DNA from: Massalongia carnosa
Taxonomy: Eukaryota
Assembly (NCBI GenBank): GCA_965645245.1
Contig: OZ287072.1
Coordinates: 868,001-932,000 of the forward strand
DNA length: 64,000 bases
Direction of reading: 5' to 3'
Shown piece by piece: positions 1 to 15,523 of this stretch. The translations under genes and the position numbers were made by a program. The notes below the pieces were generated by a model. It searched no databases. It saw only the letters and a list, made by a program, of their open reading frames with translations, and was not told the DNA's origin. The stretch's first letter is position 1. Each line of letters starts with the position of its first letter.

Positions 1-2524
1 TCCTGTCGGGTCCGCATCCTCCATTACATCACCGCCGTTCGCGTTCTGATACTTGACATATGTAAGGCCCAAGGGGCGTCCGCCATATTGATAGCCAGTA
101 AATTTAGCTAAGGTTACATTAGCACTTTCCCAACACAAAAGCACGACAAAAGCCACCTACCAATTGCAGTCTCCGCATTCTCTGGAGTATCAAACTGCAC
201 CACCCCAGTACCACGGGAGCGTCCGTTGGGTTCGTATTGTATCTCGGCACGCTCGACCTTTCCAATCGTGGTGAAGAGCTCGACCAAGTCTTCATTACTT
301 GTGGACCACGGCAACTAGAACCATTAGTAAACATCCGCACATCAACAGCAAGAACACTTACATTTCGGACATAAATGATCTCGCTGCGCTCCCCTCCAGA
401 TGAGGCGTAATCGGTGAAAGGATTTGGTGGAGCAGCAACGCTAGTGGGAACAGGCGTAGAATCATAGCCGGCCACAGCACCACTGTAAGCAGCACCACCT
501 CCGAAGCCTCCACGACCACCGAAACCACCCCCGAAAGATCCACGGCCACCAAACCCGCCTCTACCACCAAAGCCTCCGCGGGCGCCAATGCCAGCTCCAT
601 AGCCACCGCGACCTCCGTACCCAGCGCTTGGAGCTCCTGCAAAACGATCCTCGCGGACCTCTAGCATGCGGCCTTGCCAGTCGTAGCCGTTGAATTGGGC
701 AATGGCATTACGCGCATCGTCAGGGCTTTCAAATGCGACAACTCCGGAACCCTTTGGACGACCATCGTGGCCTATATGAACATCGGCTCTGATAACGGCA
801 CCCTGTTGGGCTGCAAACTCAATCTGTCAATATGCATTCGTACTTTCCTAGGATGGATAGTGTTTGAAAGTACGTACCGGCTTGACGGAATAAGTCCTTG
901 AGATCTTGCCAGCCAACGTTATATGGCAACTAGCACCGCCGAGGTTATTATAGTAGCCCAGGGAGACGTAGAAAAGAGCAGATTTGACAAACGTTGTTGA
1001 TGAAGATTTGACGCCCTCCACCGGAGGGAGGACCGCCTCCACCTCCAGGTCCATATCCACCGGCGCTAATGCCGCCTCGGATTGGCCCTGCTTCATAACC
1101 TCCACGAGCGGGCGGTGGTCCAGTAAAGCGAGGCTCCGCTTCGCGATCCTAAAGACGATGAGTTAGCTTTGAAGGGCTTTCTCCTATTGTAGAGCCAGAA
1201 GGACAACCGAGGCTCGCAAAGGATCGGGGGAGTTACCTCTCGAACATAGACGAGTCTGCCCATAAGGTTTTGATTACTGAGGGTGTTGACTGCCTGCTGG
1301 GCTTGCTCCCTAGTGGCGTATTCCACAATCCTGCGTCCTGTTAATTTATCCCAAAAGAAAAGGTCGCTCATAAAGCACTCACCCGCATCCCTACATAACC
1401 CGCGGACAAGGTCCCCACCCGTCAATCCAACGTCCAACAACCAAAAGAAAACCAAAAAGACCAGCCATATCTACATATAGGCGCCCACCTTCGACATTCC
1501 ATTCGGAAGTAACAACACATCGGCAAAGAGGACCTCCCCCGCTGCAGCATTGTGTCAGTAGAAGATAAGCATGAGGGGGAGGTCATAAAGGTTGGGTATT
1601 ACCTTGCCTCATGAAATCTTTTAAGTGATGCCATTTCACATCGTAGGAGAGATTGCCAACGTAGACACGACGTTCCTGCTGCGAGGATTCTCGAACTGAA
1701 GCCATCATCTGCTCCTTCGCCTGGGCGCGCTCTTCGAAACTTCGTGCTGGAGGTGCTACCCCGCCTCGACCGTAGCTTGAACCGGAGTAGCCTCCAGGTG
1801 CACCTGTCATGGGGGATCGAGAACGATGATCGCTCCTACGATAATCTTCACGGCTTCGGGAACGGCTCCTAGGAGAATAAGAACGGCGACTACGCCGTGG
1901 GCTTCGAGAACGGCGCCTAGGTGATCGAGATCTCTCGCGCTTGAGCGAAGGGTCAGTTATAGATTGGGCCATCAAAGCTTTTTCGCTAATCAAGGAAAAC
2001 GTGAAAATCACGCGCGTGAATAAACGGCTGTTGGCGGTTTCAGATCTTTTAATCAAGGGAATGGAGACTTAATAGTTAAGCGCTGTGACTTTGAGTTTTT
2101 GGAAAGAGTATTATGATGGTTAACGCGTGTGCGCGGGACTAGCCGGGAAATTTTCACCAGGGACACCCAGTAACAGCGCCATTAACATCACCACCACTAC
2201 CACCAGCAGTAGTAGTATCACTGAGCATGTGGGAAAAGCAAAACTGATATAGGGGAAATTTGTGTACTTACCGCACTTGGACGATATACGTCTGCTGAAT
2301 CTAGAGCTATGGATGTGAGCGTTTAATCATCTTTGGAAATCTTTGCATTTAAATAAAAACCGACGGAATGCTTCCCGACGGTCGCCTCAGATCAGGAGGC
2401 AGAGTGATGATAGGAGCATGTACGCAGTCCGGCGGCGCGTAGGATGGAACTAGCTTAGTCCAGAGAAGCATGGGAAAGGGAAAAGAAAAAAAGGGAAAGA
2501 TGGAAAGGAAGGTGACCGACCCAT
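1..2524 (-). CDS. GBP2: SR-like triple-RRM mRNA-binding/export protein (Gbp2/Hrb1/SnxA family); 3' end lies beyond the left edge
   Basis: Spliced model: ATGG (2524-2521) | 2294-2272 | 1940-1603 | 1541-~1489 | microexon 1390-1383 | further exons. It gives [22 protein letters not shown]... RS repeats, RRM1 ([26 protein letters not shown]...KGCGIVEY), RRM2 ([18 protein letters not shown]...GSGVVAFES), an RGG tract and RRM3 ([19 protein letters not shown]...RGTGVVQF). The two 5' exons are inferred from GT/AG sites and frame. Confidence 0.9.
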
Positions 2525-5384
2525 ATTGCTGCTCTGCTGATTATTGCGTTTACCGAGGAATAATGATTTAGGACAGACACACTGTGACTGTGACTGATCT
2601 CGTGCACGACAGAATACACACGATGGCGAAATGTAGAGCAGGGATTAAGCCGCGAAAAGGGAACGATATCTGCCACTATTGAGTCGACAAGAAAGCTTTC
2701 GGATCGAGAGACAAATTCAATAATAATACCCCAACCACTCAAAAGTGTCCAAATGGCCGAAGACCTCTCGACGAAGCGTTTCAACAACAAACAGGAGATT
2801 GATGGGGTGTGTGGGGTGTGGGGCTACAGTGTGAGTTGCCTAGTTTTGCCTTGCGGTGGTTTCCGGTTGAATAAGTTCTCTTTATTTCTTGCGTGTGGGA
2901 GACTAAAGGCCTATTTGCGTTACCAGGTCAGCCTCAGTGTTACAAGTGCAGGAAGGCTTTTGGCTGCGGGTCGCCCTGGTTCCTTCCTGGTTCTCCTCCT
3001 AGTCTTTCCGGGCGAGGGCTTGCACAGATTGGAGGGAGAATATTCTTGCCTCAAAAATCCAACAGATTGGCTGATGGAGAACCGTTTGGGTGAGTCAATG
3101 GAGTAGGGGCCGTGCGGTTGTACAGAAATGCCACGAACCAATCGCCAAGAGAACTTAGCACCGAAGCGGCAAGGCAAGAGCAGGGCGATCAAGGATGAAG
3201 AGTGACAGTGTGATACAGTTGAGCATCAGACAGCTGTGGGAGGTGTGTGCAAGCACTGGTAGTGAGAATTTACCTTCTGGTTCAAAAAAATTCCAGTCGA
3301 AGCTAACCCAGCTTGCAATAGCGTTACACGAAGCGAAGGGGGGGTTTGCTCAAAACGGGAGTTTGTGGCGCTCAACATCCACGTTCAATTCGCAGAAGCA
3401 GCCACGGGCATACCCATGGTGTCAATATTGCCGTTTTAATCTGATACCGACTGTACGAAACTGATCATCGTCATCAATATGCAAGAAAACGTTCACGGCA
3501 GACCACACACCGATTTGAGCCTTCCTCTCGTATCCTGTCCGGAATAACCTGGGGAGAGGATTTCAGCGTCTCGTATACACTTTTATAAGATTACACCAAT
3601 GCCGTTGAAATTTTGACATCGTCTGGAATATCCCAATACACTATTTCAACAACGTAAAATGCTTTGGAGAATGCCCTTATCACTCAAAACATAAGAAGAA
3701 CGGAGGAGGGAGGATGGGAGCGGGAGATTGCCTGCAATACACCCACCAGCGAATGACAGCGCTCAACACCCATATGATGATCCTTGGGCTGGTGAAAGCT
3801 GCAAAATCTAGAATTTAGCCATCCGACCTGTGGCTTGCGTGGCACGGTGAATCGGTAGTGAAAGCTTGACCCTTGAATTATGATGCTGAATGTTCGACTT
3901 ACTCTCGCACTACTGCATCTTCCGCGGGCCAGGATTTGGCGGCCTCTCATCTCCAGACCCATCCCCCCACCAAAGACTGTGCTGCCGATATATGCACTCA
4001 ACCGCCAACGGCTTACCCTCTTCAATTCTGCACGAGACTTCGGACTTCTTGGCTCTTTGGGTCTCATGGGTGATTTCCCACTGACAATTGGGTAACAATT
4101 GCTTCCAAGGCTGACAGCATTTACTTTGGGTTACAGTGACGAGCCACTAAAGCAATTCACGGGGATCCTTCTCCGTTTGTTTGATTGCATGGTTGCTCTG
4201 GTGTGGTCGAAACGTTTCGTTAGTTCATCTTCTTCCATCCTTTGGCAGTCCATCACACGGACCAGCGATTCCGTTGCTAATCCATCAAGCAGGGACAGCG
4301 GATCGCAGGAGGTGGACAATCACGTTATGAGGAGATGGATGCGGGTCATCGATGTCTCTCACAAGTGTCCATCGATAAGCCAATCACATGTTGCAAGAGG
4401 ACCTTCTTTTCCGATAGGGCTGTCCTCAAACTCAAATATTGCTTTCAGTTCGCCGGCATCATGCATTAACTTCAGCCGCGGCCATAGCGAAGACACTTTG
4501 ATTGCCTATACCTCATGCTTAAAGGGTTAGCGTCTACTCCAGGAAAAACGCCTTGTACTCTCTTGAGTGAGAGACCTGGAGAAGATCACCCAATATTCTT
4601 GTTCCGTCGACTGTATTGCAACCTAATCCTATCAATTAAGGCATAAATATGCGACCACTGTACTACATAGGCACGGAGGTACTCTGTTTGAGTGATGATC
4701 AGGGCAAAGAACCTAGCCTACTAGGGCTACCTATGTTACCTATTCTTTATGAAGCTAGTTATCGGCTAATTCGCAATTACCGGCGGATCCCGTCTTGGCG
4801 TTTTGCATCTTAGCCCATGACCTTCTACTCCTACGCGGGTGAAAAAAAAAAAGTAACGTGGGCCGGAATTATTTCATTCATATACTATCCAGAGACTTCT
4901 GGCACTCTGCCACCTATTTTCTGTGCATTGGGTCCCATCTATCCCTCCTATTTAAACACTTATTATTACTATTGCCGGGAACTATCACGGTGCGAGGTCA
5001 AGTAGGTAATTCAGGTGGTGCAAACGTATTACTTGATTATCTAGCTAGGTGGACAAGACGTTCGACAAGGAGAAAAGAAACAGAAAATCAACCTAGGACA
5101 AGTATAAGACTGACGAGTAGAACTGGTCCTGATTCGGCTGTTGATCCTATTTCCACTCAAGTTCCTGTCATGACACTATTGACAAATAGAGTTAAATGGT
5201 ATATCAGGTGTGTTCTATTGAGATCTGTCTACATACATGGCTATTATATACTGCCTAGCGCGCCAAGGCTCGCAGGGCTACGCTACACCCGCAAAGGGGT
5301 TGGAGGATAATTTAACAAATAGAGCACTTACGGTTGCCCTAGATAGTCCGATTGACAGATGTCCGGTCATTTCATGACAGGAAA

Positions 5385-6135
5385 CCTAGTAAAATATAAT
5401 ATCTGATTTGAAATTGAACTCAACTGCGGCTCAGCAATGCATTCGTTTTCGGATCTTTTCAAATAAAGGATGATGCTGAACACAATCTTACCGATATCGA
5501 GTATTAGGTAGACGAAGTATTCACAATTGATCTTCGAGATCATGTTTGAAGTGCACTTCTTCATTGAATCGAACTCGATGTCAGTCTTTGATGTGAAATA
5601 TGTTGCTTTCATCATTGAAGCATATTCAACTCTCCGTTCTATAGAAGTCTTATCAAGTCATTCTTTTACGCAGATCAGGCATTTTTCATAAATTAAAGCC
5701 TTTCGAAGAACGTTATACATACATGATTCGATTTATCACTTCAGCTTCTATTTTCGTTGCAATTTGTTCTCAAGAATATCTCTTTTCTTCGAGCTTTAAA
5801 TCGCTTTGTTGTAAAATTGATCAGCCTCTCGCATCTGTTATTCAGTAACTTTTGATTTGCGACCTCGAATGTCATTTATTTCTGAAATATGATATCGCTT
5901 TCGTTGCCGATGCTTCCTCTTTCAGCATTTTATATCCTGCTCTTTCGAATCTGACATCAAATGCTTTGAAAATATCTCGCACATCATGTGAAATATCTTT
6001 AGCAGAAAGATATAGAGGCGCGCCTTGAACTTTGACCTTCGGAGGAGTATCATAATGAGCAGCGCCCCGTTTAGAAGGCATGAAAAAATGTGTTTTCGGT
6101 GGTGTCAGGGGTGCATATTTTTTTCCACCCGCGTG
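5385..6135 (-). mobile_element. Degenerate, 3'-truncated Tc1/mariner (DDE) transposon relic
   Basis: ORF 6081-5872 (HYDTPPKVKVQGA...DIFKAFDV) resembles N-termini of fungal Tc1-like transposases. Reading on through stops and frameshifts gives D*HRVRFNEEVHF...QL*ILR.PNTRYR*DCVQ...RMHC*AAVEFNFKSDIIFY, matching the W.RVRFSDE.HF...WAAVG.NFKS pattern. The region is AT-rich, with a TIR-like end (CACGCGGGTGGAAAAAAA on the minus strand) at ~6135-6118. Confidence 0.8.
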
Positions 6136-6311
6136 ACTCCACCCGGCGACTTTAGTTCACCTGGGAGAATAGTTTTTAATTACATACCTTGTACAGAGTA
6201 ATAGGTATCTAAATACGGAGTAAGTACCTAACAATGTACTCAAGTACCCAAGTACCTAAGTACCTATCTACAACACCTATCCTCCCTTTGCAAATGGGCC
6301 CCATACGGGCA

Positions 6312-7209
6312 ATGGCAAGCTCTAGCAAAGCTTTATACCTTCGGTCCGCCCTTCCCCTCTATCCAGCCCTACGCCATCCGCCCTTCTCATCACCCCGCAG
6401 CCTTTCCCTTGCCCGACTCTTCCACTCCCATGAAGCCCACGATTCCCACAATCCCCCACCGCCTCCCTTCCCTCCCGCCGAAACCGCCATCCTCTCCGCT
6501 GCCCTTACCCATGTGCCTACTCATGGCTTCACCACCGCAGCGCTGTCTCACGGCGCCCGAGATGCGGGATACCTAGATGTGTCGGTGAACCTGTTTCCCG
6601 CCGGGGCGGTCGCGCTCGTCAACTACCACCTAGTCACGCAGCGACTTGCACTAGCTCAACATCACCGCTGCGGCCGCGGGGAGGCCGAGTTGTCGCGGAG
6701 CATGATGAACGCAGAAGTGAGGAGGCTGGCCTGGACGCGGTTACAGGCAAATACTCCGATCATCCATCGCTGGCAGGAGGTGCGTCTGTCAATTCTCGTA
6801 GAATCCTTCCCCCAATCATCAAAACTGAGTTTTCCAACCGACTAACCCCCCCGCCAAAACCCTTCCACAACCAAAGGCCCTTGCCCTCCTTGCCATGCCC
6901 GCCTACATATCTTTCTCCGTCCGCGAACTCGCCCTCCTTGCCGACGAGATCCTCTTCCAAGCTGGCGACGCGGCAGTTGACTCCTCGTGGTACATACAGC
7001 GCGCGGGCCTGAGCGCTATCTACGCCAGCGCGGAGCTATTCATGACGCAGGATAGCTCCGGTGGGTTCGCGGCCACAGAGGAGTTTCTGGCGCGTCGGCT
7101 GGAGGGGGTGGAGAGGGCGCAGGCCTCGCTAGGGATGGTGGGTAGATGGGTCGGGATGCAGGCGGCTGGGGCGGTGAATGTGTTAAGAAGTAAGGGGGTA
7201 AGGATTTAA
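6312..7209 (+). CDS. COQ9: Ubiquinone biosynthesis protein COQ9
   Basis: Motifs ILSAALTHVPTHGF, RLQANTPIIHRWQEALALLAMP and ELALLADEILFQAGDAAVDSSWY..RAGLSAIYASAELFMTQDSS. Intron 6780-6876 (GTGCGT..CTAAC..AAG). The start may be 6294 or 6312. Confidence 0.93.
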
Positions 7210-7538
7210 AATTTGTGGAGAGAAGGGGGTAGAAGGGGGTAGACCTGAGGAGGTGGACTTAAGGGGGAGAGATCAGGAAGAGTGGGGGGATGGAGAACGG
7301 GACCAAGTTTTACAATTTGATACTTGGTACACAAGCCTTTTCTTTTAACAGGACTTTGGTTCCCTTCACCTGGAACTCTCATCGAGCGTGTTCCACCCTC
7401 TCCTAGCAGTATTGTAAATCGTTTGGGAAACAAAACTCCAGCGTTCTCTCGAGGGCAGTATATACACAGGCATCACGCGGGCGGCACCATCCGCATTATC
7501 CTTACCCTCCCTACCTCCCCCTTTATCGCCTCCATTCT

Positions 7539-9041
7539 CTACTCCATCCCTTCCCAAGGCATAATAACCTCGTTGGCAGTGCTATCTGCACCATGGTCAT
7601 CCTTCTCTATCGTCTTTTGCTCCATCTGACTCCGCACTGTGCGCTCCTTCACCTCCTGCCGCACAGCCATTGTCGCGTGGAGCAGCTTTGCACCAGCCTC
7701 CCACACACCCCGCAGCTTCCACCACGCCTTCGTGACCGGTTCGGCCATCAGCGCCGGGTCCGTCTGCTTGGTGCGCCATCGATCGAGCGACACGCACTCC
7801 AGCACCTTAAGCGTCACCTCGTCGGCCTCGATGCCCTGATCACGCATTTCGGCCAGCAAATCCGCCATACCGTCCAGGTCGTGGTACTGCGTCCACTTGA
7901 TGAAGAGCAGCTCGTTGTAGAGCGCCGGTGAGGCGCCTAACACGAACGAGATGGGGCCGAGCTGCTTGACCATTGGGAGCAGGTGGAGCGCATAAGGGGA
8001 AGTAGGGAACTCGCGCCGCAGCTGCCGCAGCGCGAGCACACAGTAATAGCTGTAGTTTTGCTGCAGCACCAAAAGAGGAGCCGAGGCTGGGAAGGTGTGG
8101 GTGGCGGTAAGATCTTCTCCCCTCTTACGGTGGCCACCCTTTTTCTTAGCGGTCTGCTTCGGGGTAGATTTTGGCTCCCCGGACCGAAGTCTGGCCTGAC
8201 GTCTCTTATTCTCCTTCTCATGCTCCTTAAACTTTTCGATAAGGCTGAAAACATCCGTTTCAAGCACTCGCCAGACCTCAAGGTCCGTGACACACTGCTC
8301 AAATTTGTGCGTCACCATCGCTGCATGCTCCCTGAGCAAGATATCGATATCAGTATATTCTTTCTCAAATGGGATCTCGCCCGGCTTGTCGTCTTTGAGG
8401 GATGCCATCGTAAAGAGCTTTGATTTTTTCTCCCTCACCAACGGGGAGTCCAACGCCCGTTCTACGGGGTTGTTCTTGAGCATTTCCTGCCACCTCGAAA
8501 CGGACGCAGCACGCTTTTCATCTATTAAATTTTGCTGCATGATGGCTTGCTCGAAGATGGAGCTGATGGATGTATCCACGTCAAAGTCTACTTCGTCAAA
8601 GGCATCATCGAAGTCCTCGTTAGGCTTCCGAGGAGCAGAAACTTCATTTTCTGCTACGCGAGCTATATCCTTGAAGATGCGCTCAAATACTTCTTCCTCA
8701 GCGGCGGTGAGGGTATTATTAGGAACCGAAGTTGCCGAATCGGGGTTATCGCGAGTACTGGGGTAGAATCGGACATATGACCGATCATGCTCGTTTGGGG
8801 AGGGAATGCCTTCAAAAGGAATGTCATTGTATGATGATATATCGGTAGGATTGGCGTTTTTGATAGGTGTTGCACAGAAGCTACGATGAGCTCTGCTTGC
8901 GTTGAAGATGAGTTTGCACCTCTTTTTCGAGGATATCTTGCACTGCAACGTTCGAGTCTGATAAAGGAATGGAACCAAAGAGCTGGACGAGGTGCCGAGA
9001 TAAATATTCCCTGCGTTCCATATATTTTTACCCACGGACAT
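7539..9041 (-). CDS. Mtf2/Nam1-like mitochondrial protein
   Basis: Single 500-aa ORF with a mitochondrial-type basic N-terminus (LVPFLYQTRTL). C-terminal block PTSPYALHLLPMVKQLGPISFVLGASPALYNELL..KW resembles the Mtf2 family. Confidence 0.7.
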   Translation of the reverse strand: MSVGKNIWNAGNIYLGTSSSSLVPFLYQTRTLQCKISSKKRCKLIFNASRAHRSFCATPIKNANPTDISSYNDIPFEGIPSPNEHDRSYVRFYPSTRDNPDSATSVPNNTLTAAEEEVFERIFKDIARVAENEVSAPRKPNEDFDDAFDEVDFDVDTSISSIFEQAIMQQNLIDEKRAASVSRWQEMLKNNPVERALDSPLVREKKSKLFTMASLKDDKPGEIPFEKEYTDIDILLREHAAMVTHKFEQCVTDLEVWRVLETDVFSLIEKFKEHEKENKRRQARLRSGEPKSTPKQTAKKKGGHRKRGEDLTATHTFPASAPLLVLQQNYSYYCVLALRQLRREFPTSPYALHLLPMVKQLGPISFVLGASPALYNELLFIKWTQYHDLDGMADLLAEMRDQGIEADEVTLKVLECVSLDRWRTKQTDPALMAEPVTKAWWKLRGVWEAGAKLLHATMAVRQEVKERTVRSQMEQKTIEKDDHGADSTANEVIMPWEGME

Positions 9042-9222
9042 TGGTGACTAAAAAACAAGTTGTAGGAAGCGAGATGTTGATGTTAGCAGCGCTTTTGAGA
9101 ATGATGCCGAAGATTTATTTCGAACGAGCTATCGAGGCCTCTGTACAGAGTATGTACGGCGGTTACCAACTAGTGTTTAAAAGTATTATTACATACTCTG
9201 TACGTATGGAGTACTAATACTG

Positions 9223-9280
9223 ACGCGTGACGGTAATCAAATTACTTCTTGTGTATTCTACGAGGTACTTATGTCACGTG
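9223..9280. promoter_or_regulatory. MCB box and GTCACGTG E-box in the MTF2/CMR1 bidirectional promoter
   Basis: ACGCGT at 9223-9228 and CACGTG at 9275-9280, within a 411-bp divergent intergenic region. Confidence 0.45.
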
Positions 9281-9452
9281 AAGAGAAACTGAGGCTATCC
9301 GCCAGGAACGCGCCTCCACGACGTTCATGTCTAAAAGAACATAATTCAAAAACTCGTGACTCGATTCATTTCAAAGCTTCAGAGTACTCTGTACATACTA
9401 AGGTAATGAAAGCTGTTTCCTCCGTCCCCACAATTGGTTTCAGCGAGCATAC

Positions 9453-11120
9453 ATGGCGCGCAAAGAGCCACTCGAACTCAGTGAATATGAAAAGCAGCGA
9501 CAGGCCAATATAGCACAACGAGACAGCCTGCTGAAGCAGCTTGCACTCGATGCTGCGTCCGCCGGGCTCGGCCCGAAATCATTTTCAAACCCTGCAAATA
9601 AAAGCGCTGGTACGCATAAGAAGAAGCCGGTAATCAAACGAGTTAAAGAAGAAATCTTACCGCGACGAACATCGTCTCGCCTTGCTGGCTTGACCGCCGA
9701 CAGTGAAGTCGCCAAGCGAAAAGCCGAGGATGAGTACGTTGCGGTGCAGGAAGCGGCGAGGGCAAAACGACAAAGGGTTTCTGGGGATCTGAACTTGAGC
9801 GATGTCGTCGTGGCGGGGAGGAGCTGGGACAAGAGCCAAAACTTCCTCATAGACGTAGTCTCGAGGGGCGCGAAACCGTATGACCGCACCTTTTGCGAGA
9901 CGGAAGTGAAGCAGACGACGGACAAGCATTTGAGGGCGTTGAGAGAGAAAATGAGCGGGCTGGAATTGTACGATGGCTTCGAACCAAACCGCATTAAAAT
10001 CACCCCCGAGCGCATCTATTCTATGGGCTTTCACCCAACCGTTGATAAACCTTTGGTATTTGCCGGCGACAAACTCGGTAACCTTGGCATTTTCGACGGC
10101 TCGCAATCAGCAGCGACGATCAAATTAGAGCGTGTCAAGTCCGAAGACCAAGACGAAGAAGACGGGGAAGAGGAGGACCCAGATCCAAATATCACCTCCT
10201 TTCACCTGCACACCCGCACCATCTCCTCCTTCCAGTTCTCCCCAGTAAACACCTCCCATCTCTACACCTCGTCCTATGATTCTTCTCTCCGGCTCCTTGA
10301 TCTCTCAAAATCTACCTCGACCGAAGTGTACGCCCCTCAAGCCCCCTCTCTGGACGAGCCTCTCTCGGGAATCGAAGTTGATCCCGCCTCTCCCCAGACC
10401 CTCTACTTCTCGCGCTTAGATGGCCATCTCGGCCGCATTGACGCCCGCTCCCCCGCGCACGCTGCTGATATATTTCAGCTTTCCGAGAAGAAGATTGGTG
10501 GGTTCTCGCTGCACCCGGGAAACCCGTACTTTGTCGCCACTGCCTCGCTGGATCGCTTCATGCGCGTGTGGGACTTGCGAAAACTCAGCGGCAAGGCCGG
10601 CACAGAGCAGTTGCCAGCGCTAGTGGGGGAACATGAGAGCAGGTTGAGCGTCAGTCACGCAGCGTTTAATGCCGCCGGGCAGATCGCAACGGCCAGCTAC
10701 GATGACACGGTGAAGCTTTACTCATTTGAGGGAATGGGTGCGTGGCCAGCGGGGAAGAAATTGGCGGAGAAGGAGATGAAACCGTCGGCAGTGATACGGC
10801 ATAACAACCAAACCGGCCGATGGGTCACTATGTAAGTGCACCTTCTCCACCCTTTCCTATTTCCTCTCTCTCATCTACTAAACACCCTCCTCATTCTTAG
10901 TCTCCGCCCCCAATGGCAGCTCCATCCCTCCTCCCCTGTACAGCGCTTCTGCATCGGCAACATGAACCGCTTCGTCGACATCTACGCCGCGTCCGGGGAG
11001 CAGCTGGCGCAGCTGGGCGACCCTAGCATCACCGCCGTGCCGGCCGTTGCGCAGTTTCATCCCAGCAACGATTGGGTGGCGGGCGGGACTGCGAGCGGGA
11101 AGCTATGTTTGTGGATGTGA
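9453..11120 (+). CDS. CMR1: DNA damage-binding WD40 protein CMR1 (WDR76)
   Basis: N-terminus [12 protein letters not shown]...RRTSSRLAG, then [11 protein letters not shown] repeats ([14 protein letters not shown]) and [16 protein letters not shown]. Intron 10832-10900; ends SGKLCLWM*. Confidence 0.93.
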
Positions 11121-11730: not shown

Positions 11731-14700
11731 CTAACCCTCTTTACCAGATTTCCATGAACCCTCTCCCCTATCTCCCAGCCTACCCTCGCACCTTGACTTC
11801 TTCACAGTCCCCCTACGCACTCCCTGAGGATTAATGACCGGAGTTTCGCGCGGCCCGCTAAGGATTGTCTGTGACGTAACGCGGCCAGAATCGGGATCAG
11901 GCGTGGTGCTGGTGCTGGGTGAATTGGAGGTGCTTTGTAAAGCGAAAGGGATGGGAGAGATGAAAGAGCTGGGATGGAGGCGTTCTGAAGGGCCATGAGA
12001 TATGGGGGAGTGAGCCCGTTTGGGTGCAGGTATTGCCATAAAGGTAGAGATGGTGGAAAATATACGTACAGGGGGTTCTTTCCACGTTTTCGGGTGAAGG
12101 TTACCTAAGTGGCCGGTCATTGGGAATTTCGTCGTAATGTTGCCGGGAACGATCAAGCTCAAGCTATTGGAAAGCGAGTTGGGACGCGGCCTTTCCCGAT
12201 TCAACAACCACGCTTTTCTCAACGCCATTCCTAACGCCAACGCGACCGGACGAGCTACGCTGTTCCCAACAATCTTCCACTGCTTAGCAGGCGAGCCCAC
12301 GATGACTTCCTCGTCCGGGAAACCTTGCGCTCGGCGAACTTCCATGACGGTCATGCACCGGCACGCCTCCCAATGAACCCAGGCGCCGCAAAGGTTGTCC
12401 TGCGGCGTGCAGGCTGTCGTCACGGTCGCTATCAGCGCGTTAGGGAGAACTCGCTTCCAACTCCTGGACTTATCGGGATGGTTTTGTTGAAATGGATTCG
12501 GGTCTGAGACTTCGATCTGTGGACGAGGCATCCATCCTCGCTCTTTCGCTGTGATAAAATTCATTCCAGGGGGGTATCGTGGGACACATGAGATTCGGAT
12601 GTGGTTAAGAGCTGACTCTTTTCGGCTAGGGCGATGGTCCGGGAATCGGATGCAGTCCGTACGTGCATCGTAGTTCAACGGTAAGTCTTTTGTAGCTTCT
12701 CCAATCGTGACGTACTCAAAGGGCACTATATTCTCATGGCGTCGGCCAATTGTGAGCCCATTCGCAGTCCTACCAAGCGAACGAAGGCCCCTAGTAAGTT
12801 CTGGGCTGGAATGTGACTGTGGAGGATCAGGTAGAGGCGTTAGACCCGAGGCTGCGATGGAGATAAACAATCTTGTCCGGCTTTGCGGAGCTCCAAAGCT
12901 CCAGGCATCAAGAGTGAAGGACCGAACCTGATATCCCATGCCAACTAGGGCACATAGGACCTGCGCGAAAACATTTTTGTCACCATCCTTGGCTTTACAT
13001 TTTGCCATACCAGTCACGTTTTCGAGTAAAGCGTATTTTGGACGGTAGAAATCCACGAACGAGACAACTGAAGCCACCATGGACACATTAAGAAGAGCTT
13101 GGTCGTTGCCTTTCCATTGGTTGGCCGTGGAAAAGCCTTGACATGGGCTCCCGGCCGATATAAACTCAACAGAGCCCACAGGAGCCACGAGCGTGCTTTT
13201 GCTTCCATTCATCGCTTGGCTAAGGTAATCGTTGACTGAGCCACAAAATAGGTGGATGTTGGTGGGAGCTCGAAGGTTAGCTCTATAAGTATGAATCGCT
13301 TCCTTGAAGTAATCCACAGCCCATTCAAATCTTACAGCGCCACCCTCCTCAAGCCCCCGGCCCAAGTTTCCTCCCCCGCAGAATATGTCTAGACCCCTCA
13401 TTACTGATTGAGAAGGGGTATTAATTGGATTCCATCCTTGCTTCATAGAGCATGGCCACGGCTTTGCTAGAGGTATTAAGCCAAGCGCTGATTCATGCGA
13501 GTCTTGGTACATGATATAGTAAAAATCCGCCGTGCCCCGTCGACGATATTGAGTCGGAATTTTGTTATGCTCTTTATCCTGCGTGGTATAAAACCGAATA
13601 TGACAGGGACGGATGATGTCTTTGGCTTCGATATCTTCGATGACGGCTGTATATACGAGCTCGTTGGGTTCAGCGTCTTGATGTCCAAAATCTCTACCTC
13701 TGCGTAAAAGCCGTCTAACTCGTACGGTATCCTTATGCCCTTTGAAATGTATCTCAATCAGTTCAACGGGCTCAAGAGCCTGTCGGCGCTTCAAAGAGCT
13801 TACAACTAGCAAGGTGTCTCCAATCTCAAGATCTAGAGGTTTACTCGGCAACTTGCATTTGCATCGAAAATCAGATGCTTGTAAAGTAACCCAACTCTGT
13901 TCATCACCAATGTATTTCTGACGGACAAAATAATCCGTTTCAAGGTTGTCAGGACTTCCGAAGAACGATATTTGAGGTTGATGAATGATTTCATGAGCGT
14001 AGATATAATCATCGTCACAGTTGCAGTGATCGCTCAGAAACAGTTCGTTCTCAAATGGGTACCGCATTAATTGACATGCCGTATCCGAAGGACGATACAA
14101 CCAAATAATACTCAGCGCTTGCCCCTTCTTGAGCTCCGTGGTCCCTTGAACGTACCCGTACCACAGATTGTCCTTAGTTTTCCACTTTGTTACTTTGTCA
14201 GGAGTGATAGCGATCACGTCCCCCTTTGATATGTCTTTCCTCGCAGCAACATTCTCCCTTAAGCTATCGCCATCGTTCTTAATTCCTACTACTTTCTTAT
14301 AACGACTTGAAGGTTCCAATGCCACTTCGCCCTGCTTGCTCGCCGAGGGCAGAAGGCGTGGTTCTTGTAGGTCTAGGAATTTGGCCCAGGGCAGATGTTT
14401 AAAGCAATCGAACACGAACGGCGTTACGGTGGTCTTTCGAATTGCTGTTTTTGACAATGACACGCTTGGTCGCTTAGAGTATTTTTGATCCTTTATTTTC
14501 TTTGGATCTTCGGTTTGAATAGACACGGCATTCAAACTCACCCAGTCTATCTCACCCCACAGAGGATGAGACCCGTATTTCACATCCACCTGTAATGCTT
14601 GATAGGATAAGAAGACTGAGTGAGCGGCTACAGCACGACGAAAATCCGTATCCCCGTACTCTTTTTGCCAACTTTGCAGTTTGCCATCCGGTCTATGAAT

Positions 14701-15523
14701 ATCCTGAAGCCAGGCAAAAAAGTGTGACTTGAACTCTATAAGAGAGACGTTGTCGTGATCAGACAGATAGTCAATCACGTGCTTTGCAAAATCTGCCATC
14801 CATATGAAAGGTTCGTGATATCGCTTGTATTCAGACGCCGGCGTCTTCAACGTGTACCAAATGTCCTGTCGTTTGCCTTGAATGGACTGTATCCACACAC
14901 ACGAGCCAACCGTATCCAAATCTTTATCCTCGTAACCTCCAATGGAGAGAATCTCGAATGGAACCTTTTGAACATATGCTTCCGCTTCGCCAGACCGAAG
15001 GATTCCATCAAAATACCAGATCTTTTCGCCCTTCCGATTTATGTCATGGAGCGAGACCATCTCATTCGCGAGGACCTTTTCCTCCTTTTTTTTGGTCTTC
15101 ATATTGTAGTTAACTGACCTGTGTGGTCGGTATATAACGAAATCTTGGAGTTCCATGGTCATAAATACATCATTTCCAAATATTGACTGATGACGCTCTG
15201 TAGCATTCTCGTCTGCCTGAGACTGAGTGAGTCAAGGATTCGAGATTTTTGCCTGTTGAACGTACCAGTATGCGTTGTAACACAGCTTTCTCTTGTTGTA
15301 CAGGCGCATTATGTTCGTGTCCTTGATAAGAAGACTTGGGGTATAATAATTCAGGTATACGAAGTCCCTGAAACCATTGTTTGCATTGTTTTTTACCCGA
15401 TTCTTCCACAAGCTTAAATCCTTCATCCTCGCTGCGCTCTGCCGAGTATTTCCTCTTCCTCGATGATCCTTCTGGTACTGATAGTTTGGAAGTATAAGTA
15501 GTAGCGCCGTTGGTGATATGCAT
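11731..15523 (-). CDS. dim-2: DIM-2-type cytosine-5 DNA methyltransferase (BAH domains plus C5-MTase)
   Basis: BAH-like region (IIWLYRPSDT...YPFENELFLSDHCNC) and MTase motifs I (LDIFCGGGNLGRGLEEGG), IV (SAGSPCQGFS), VI (LLENV), VIII (PQSRTRLFI) and IX-X (EVRRAQGFPD, IVGNSV). A short intron starting at 15265 joins the 5' exon in frame; the start codon is inferred. Confidence 0.92.

Follow-up and report, generated by a model that had tools for sequence, protein, structure and literature searches.

A C-to-T signature at CpC, probably left by a RIP-like process, in individual transposon copies of Massalongia carnosa

In RIP, repeats pair before meiosis, and a RID-family enzyme is thereby recruited and changes C to T. 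The 2011 survey of 49 ascomycetes by Clutterbuck reportedly found varied sequence contexts and could hold a precedent for a CpC-dominant RIP, of which no report was found in titles and abstract openings. The order of contexts in Neurospora crassa is CpA>CpT>CpG>CpC, and CpC also comes last in T. reesei (PMC5496416); in CpA RIP, the third base matters little (bioRxiv 10.1101/344036). One genome with two dinucleotide signatures and two RID/Masc1 genes has been described, in which the second context is CpT; the accessible part of that report links the CpT signature to a motif of RID rather than to a paralogue, and its Table 2 (ten genomes) gives CpA, CpT, and CpG only (PMC4352252). Methylation-deamination of repeats at CpG is described for Tuber and basidiomycetes (PMC4352252), and hypermutation by DIM-2 for T. 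reesei (PMC11381340). In the lichen fungus Cladonia rangiformis, which has RID and DIM-2, DNA transposons are unevenly affected; RIP was called by GC content, and the word "dinucleotide" is absent from the available portion of the text (PMC12542154). Contexts reported in the accessible parts of the literature are CpA, CpT, and CpG (PMC4352252, PMC2621366, PMC5555474, PMC5602860, PMC12542154, PMC13535494, PMC11381340, PMC12543289, PMC13297926, PMC8959702, PMC5381539, PMC5496416, PMC7882544, bioRxiv 10.1101/344036), and the CpC>TpT changes of Monilinia are treated there as double mutations; the string "CPC" in PMC5602860, considered as a possible CpC context, was a strain code. A 2025 survey covering 1,239 fungal genomes concludes, in its available part, that a preference for CpA is common to RIP-like defences (PMC12543289).

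The window analyzed here is a stretch of 64,000 nucleotides of M. carnosa (genome G000, 52 Mb in 25 contigs; C6:868,001-932,000). It contains, on the minus strand at 5383..6135, the 5' part of a CpC-hypermutated DNA transposon of ~1.3 kb, with 82-85% identity to five sister copies; the preliminary description, made from the letters alone, had located this relic correctly but with too small an extent (5385..5900). The copy has several small indels, a transposase start codon at 6081-6079 (minus strand), and a 5' terminal inverted repeat (TIR) at 6118..6135 (minus strand), which is shorter than in the sister copies. A probable partner TIR on the plus strand (4833..4870) lies 1.3 kb from the 5' TIR, corresponding to the length of a full element, and presumably belongs to the same copy. 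In place of the lost 3' half, pieces of other repeats form a patchwork at 4866..5306 (4866-4958, 4985-5179, and 5206-5306; unstranded), and the repeat patchwork at 4833-5383 is nearly the same length as the lost half. An intact relative (L194) has a 364-aa ORF matching Pfam DDE_3 (E 9e-11) with a D167, D264, E303 triad (spacing of 38), and TIRs were found in the family. Since none of the element ends found in 14 copies was preceded by TA, that is, no TA target-site duplication was detected, the element is referred to as Tc1/mariner-like. The Tc1-like elements L180-L204 have ends starting with CAC, no TA target duplication, and D-D38-E spacing, and an array of 50-bp tandem period adjoins several transposon copies (flanks of L013, L017, and L040). 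The neighboring genes are a COQ9-like gene on the plus strand (6213..7210, end approximate; Pfam COQ9_N), used as a control, and DIM-2 on the minus strand, the main exon of which (11731..15231; 1166-aa open frame) contains BAH, DUF7893, and DNA_methylase.

C>T changes accounted for 71 of the 112 differences between the window copy and the majority of its sisters over 741 positions, the others being 15 T>C and 26 transversions. When tabulated by the 3' neighbor, they were in excess at CpC, and not at CpA or CpG: CC 39/64, CA 12/99, CG 9/76, and CT 11/82 (39/64 versus 32/257 for other C; Fisher p=1.2e-14). Both strands were affected (CC>TC at 13/22 and 26/42). Among 15 coding-strand TGG codons of the sister majority, 10 were TGA, three TAA, one TAG, and one GGG in the window copy. 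The five plus-strand TCA triplets that had been read as TGA in place of Trp were all present, four in one frame (5431, 5521, 5581, and 5770) and that at 5658 in another. Intact relatives did not already carry TGA: on the minus strand, TGG was found in 5/5 sisters at 5431..5433 (plus-strand CCA>TCA), 5521..5523, and 5770..5772, in 4/5 at 5658..5660, and in only 2/5 at 5581..5583, where the rest had TGA, TAG, or TTG. The suspected depletion of CC/GG, with CA/TG and CG still common, was evident from the observed/expected (O/E) ratios in 5385-5900: CC 0.36, CA 1.12, CG 1.39, TC 1.52, and TA 0.59. This region contained 11 CC+GG where shuffling gave 30.2 (none of 20,000 shuffles was as low), and had the lowest CC value (0.30; mean 1.02) among the 636 500-bp windows of the window; the family itself is somewhat CC-poor, with a (CC+GG)/(TC+GA) ratio of 0.51 in one sister versus 0.19 in the window copy. 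The COQ9-like gene region was without CC depletion (O/E 1.07-1.15 in 1-kb windows from 6001, 6501, and 7001). As anticipated in the preliminary description, standard RIP indices were blind to the signature (TpA/ApT 0.54 and substrate index 1.83 for the element). Two short-read contigs, X1 and X2, were identical to the window over 5291-9500 and 5291-9028, respectively (0 differences), and may derive from the source sample, the library not being on record. A contig from another study (X4) carried the orthologous copy with only 41 substitutions over 4.2 kb (5290-9500), which leaves no fewer than 20 of the 39 changes at CC common to both. The identity of X1 and X2 together with the sharing by X4 excludes a base-calling artefact for the window copy, and the changes are in heritable DNA.

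The CpC bias recurred in three DNA-transposon families and one RT-like relic, with hit copies on at least nine contigs (C1, C2, C3, C5, C6, C9, C11, C14, and C19). Among 77 copies of five families, strong CC excess was detected in two of seven copies of family A (L001 and L004), two of seven of family B (L007 and L008; L024 was borderline), and the pogo family P2. It was absent from the young families P1 (0/18) and C (0/15), and this may have been caused simply by their youth. Several un-hit copies showed a mild CpA excess (18/176 in L006 and 12/254 in L052). Pairwise comparison over 12,902 alignments revealed a significant one-sided CC excess in A, B, P2, and a relic at L153:4602-4915 (CC 33/42, CCA 17/17), a CA excess in two rows, and a CG or CT excess in none; the partner of this relic matches RVT_1 weakly (E 0.27), and we read the relic as Gypsy. 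Because searching with Pfam favors the most intact copies, these counts do not give the share of hit copies. The genome has a heavy load of transposable elements (TEs) with open frames: 951 DDE_1, 877 DDE_3, and 1,829 RVT_1 first-look candidates (150 each scored).

Most P2 copies were hit. Since the majority sequence was itself hit and understated the changes, they were recounted against two un-hit copies (L151 and L156), giving 31-41 CC changes in each of five lineages, 68 in L166, 11-20 in shorter or partial copies, and none in L177 and L178. Pooling of ten lineages (of 12 copies tested, with L161 at 8/166 and L177 at 0/63 left out; independence judged by a site matrix and a weak tree) gave 180/534 (34%) at CCA and 94/893 at other CC, versus 31/1803 (about 2%) at CA, 32/1466 at CG, and 58/1782 at CT. 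Nine copies (L152-L155, L158-L160, L164, and L165) carried one common inherited set of 35-38 changes, a single CC-hit copy having been amplified later; L152 and L153 of this set contain five TGG>TGA stops. Mutation was therefore no barrier to movement in trans.

The preferred target was the first C of CCA. In eight pooled hit copies, which were picked for CC excess and in which only the pattern within CC is thus unbiased, the base after CC mattered (p=1e-15; CCA 37%, other CC 12-15%), and the 5' neighbor of CC had no effect (p=0.28). Within CCA, the first C was changed at 105/286 and the second at 11/287 in these copies, whereas 42 background copies showed the reverse pattern (15/1817 and 50/1815, respectively), which points to two processes. 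The originally proposed CpC target was thereby retained and refined: CCA is hit above other CC, in some copies only, and a weak CpA bias is found in others. Both CC and CA changes rose with age; relative to a transversion clock, CC changes were about 8-fold and CA changes about 2.5-fold overdispersed, with many changes per copy occurring in bursts. Strand bias within single copies was observed in L004 (p=0.03) and L007 (p=0.004), and none was significant in L001 and L008; pogo lineages leaned to one strand, perhaps through composition.

The changes were confined to repeated DNA in the DNA sampled. The flanks of hit copies had CC O/E values of 0.79-1.20, and in 114 contiguous kb, only 5 of 1,137 windows were below 0.5, in two segments that were both repeats. 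Among distinct CC-low segments, 18/19 had copies elsewhere (a sample of ~1 Mb of 52 Mb, mostly TE loci), eight of which belong to a clustered element (see below) that shows no hits when its copies are compared with one another. In unique DNA, 7 of 15 X4 transitions among those listed were at CC (expected share 0.31, p=0.14; a small and unpolarized set), and a weak genome-wide CC bias may exist. Inside the element, three of the five differences between X4 and the window among those listed fell on the 5' C of what was ancestrally CCA, with the hit confined to the window allele in two cases and to X4 in one; the process therefore ran after the split of alleles about 1% apart, with the proviso that in two of the three the neighboring second C is itself already mutated in the window allele, so that the context of these hits at the time is uncertain. 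The idea that hit copies are solitary (repeat cover in 1/16 flanks of eight core copies versus 21/44 of others) was not relied on: the count left out L163, both flanks of which are repeats, and the short flanking fragments of the window copy, and some supposedly un-hit copies were later shown to have inherited hits.

These properties resemble RIP in N. crassa in that C:G>T:A changes are confined to repeats, clustered per copy, and gene-killing, in a genome with RID-like and DIM-2 genes. On the other hand, the dominant context is the least preferred one in N. crassa, the stops are TGA and not TAG, there is no gain of TpA, and the third base matters, CCA being hit three times as often as other CC, unlike in CpA RIP. 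Neither a CpA preference (CA 1.7% versus CCA 34% in the ten pogo lineages) nor positive RIP indices were found. As in the two-signature genome above, insofar as it is described in PMC4352252, two signatures coexist with two RID genes, the second context being CpC here and CpT there. As in C. rangiformis, a lichen fungus with RID and DIM-2 has DNA transposons that are hit unevenly; unlike in that species, for which GC content was the basis of the RIP calls, almost no windows look like classical RIP (6 of 9,397, all marginal), and numerous retroelements remain intact. Loss of C to T in repeats through methyltransferases is shared with the methylation-deamination systems, from which the present case differs in the sparing of CpG (32/1466) and in its episodic hits. 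We regard this as a real variant of RIP-like repeat mutation, undescribed in the literature found and RIP-like except for the CpA preference.

An artefact, whether from errors of long-read base calling at methylated positions, from misassigned polarity, or from the base composition of the family, has next to no probability in spite of the somewhat CC-poor family and an assembly platform that is not on record: two contigs are letter-identical, X4 shares at least 20/39 changes, intact relatives have Trp where hit copies carry TGA, and nine pogo copies inherited one set of 35-38 changes. For the window copy, it is already refuted. DNA damage by UV or by the alkylation of G in GG is also very improbable, as is an APOBEC-like deaminase acting on single strands. 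Lichens are exposed to UV, CT was slightly raised in hit copies (43/1341), and alkylation signatures favor the first C of CC and CT. UV and APOBEC3G, however, target C after a pyrimidine, whereas the 5' base was neutral here and the second C of CCA was spared. Furthermore, damage would neither end at element borders nor select copies, both strands of one copy were hit, and the composition of the flanks suggests no CC excess in unique DNA.

Vegetative 5mC on CC in silenced repeats, laid down by DIM-2, DNMT5, or RID-A and lost by slow passive deamination without a meiotic homology step, is the strongest of the alternatives, and still an unlikely one. All three genes have long open frames with catalytic motifs, the rate of CC change correlates with transversions (rho 0.5-0.6), and the avoidance of CT and CC at synonymous sites by the clustered AT-rich retroelement suggests long CpY pressure. 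Slow deamination fits poorly with like-aged copies that range from 1% to over 20% at CC (about 8-fold overdispersion), or with clustered retroelement copies lacking a CC bias among themselves; moreover, as far as the accessible part of the source goes, DIM-2 acts in all contexts with CpT preferred and DNMT5 at CpG (PMC13297926).

We therefore consider the probable cause to be a RIP-like process aimed at CpC(A). Such a repeat-directed process would strike individual transposon copies in discrete episodes, converting the 5' C of CC to T on either strand and above all within CCA. TGG reads CCA on the opposite strand, so that several Trp codons would become TGA in each episode, killing the transposase but leaving a copy that could still be mobilized in trans. 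By analogy with the RIP model, repeats would be recognized by homology before meiosis, and an enzyme of the C5-methyltransferase family would methylate or deaminate the target C; we infer the pre-meiotic action and the defence role on the same grounds. The early proposal of a repeat-directed C-to-T change at the 5' C of CpC thus agrees with the spectrum, its recurrence in other families, and the spared flanks.

The genome carries DIM-2, DNMT5, and two RID-like genes. The nearness of DIM-2 to the window copy, suspected from the start to be chance, is judged to be so, since hit copies are spread over at least nine contigs; the second RID-like gene is the stronger candidate. The RID gene of this genome has its named relatives, at 61-65%, in Lecanora, Pseudocyphellaria, Alectoria, Physcia, and Pycnora, and one of the matching sequencing runs is a lichen metagenome; a lichen-forming host is thus most likely. 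RID-A (C15) groups with most of the named lichen RIDs, and the second RID/Masc1 gene (L037:3352-4979, C17; referred to as RID-B), with 37% identity to RID-A, belongs to a clade of its own that also contains a Heterodermia protein (support 0.92-0.98). RID-B is compact, with a C5-methylase domain containing the PC motif and an N-terminal region common to RID-A. It has no complete frame through motifs IX-X, an in-frame stop (L037:4635-4637) preceding the target-recognition region and these motifs (splicing inferred from homologues); motif I has a D>V change. Eleven of 77 conserved columns are altered, versus 0-5 in 20 homologues, a count inflated by the long branch; the excess may reflect an older death, and the stop may be polymorphic. 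An origin of this stop by TGG>TGA self-mutation was rejected, homologues carrying N, T, or S at that column. RID-B, a divergent paralogue whose gene is broken in this genome, is the likeliest enzyme, an assignment we hold with somewhat less than even confidence and more weakly than the other steps of the proposed mechanism. Intact RID-A and/or DIM-2 would produce the mild CpA background. More tentative still is the broader proposal that the RID-B clade of lichen fungi is behind a second RIP pathway, distinct in acting on the first C of CC(A) and so converting Trp codons to stops.

A metagenome scan yielded 80 RID loci, six of which were RID-B-like and from one apparent species; no long CC or CA block was found at 78 of the 80. 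L212, with an intact RID-B, contained a 3.4-kb block (1-3400), 7 kb from RID-B, with 5 CC+GG versus 91 expected and 280 CA+TG versus 302 expected (GC 21-25%). This block was absent from the same locus in the conspecific L211, and no TE protein match was found for it. L220, of another RID clade, contained a classical block (1-4400) with 4 CA+TG versus 356 expected, lacking CpA and CpG, with a weak LINE-like match, and absent in L219. The co-occurrence of RID-B and a CC block was thus judged from locus flanks in one CC-block species and one CA-block species. Given a Gypsy relic with three Trp>TGA changes beside a third RID type (L286), the link to RID-B may not be exclusive. This third, long-branch RID clade comprises L285, L286, and L249, with a stop in the gene in L285 and L286.

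If the RID-B proposal is true, new insertions would lose nearly all CC where RID-B is intact; its inactivation in the present lineage would leave a fossil CC-hit layer beneath many young intact transposons; and the sequence context of RIP would be set by the RID protein and be experimentally swappable. How RID chooses its target, and whether RID is catalytic at all, are open questions in the accessible part of PMC13297926, and target choice would become directly testable with a natural pair of paralogues that differ in opposite ways in context. A CpC-dominant process also contradicts the generality of the CpA preference in the survey cited above (PMC12543289, as available) and escapes indices built on TpA: the composite RIP index of the saturated L212 block is 0.02, and such genomes would therefore be scored as RIP-free.

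TE-dense clusters (200 kb on C13 and C2) were considered as a reservoir of the signature and set aside as direct evidence, the copies of the dominant element being without mutual CC bias. This clustered, centromere-like, AT-rich RT element (C13:1,336,000-1,380,000 and C2:1,546,000-1,625,000; L130-L149), which is probably LINE-like, has frames of up to 1,343 aa with Trp kept. It avoids CT/AG and CC/GG synonymously (AAG 17/126, GAG 9/71, Arg CGN 41/53), with O/E values of about 1.7 for CpG and about 0.6 for CpT, and may have been reshaped by long CpY mutation under selection.
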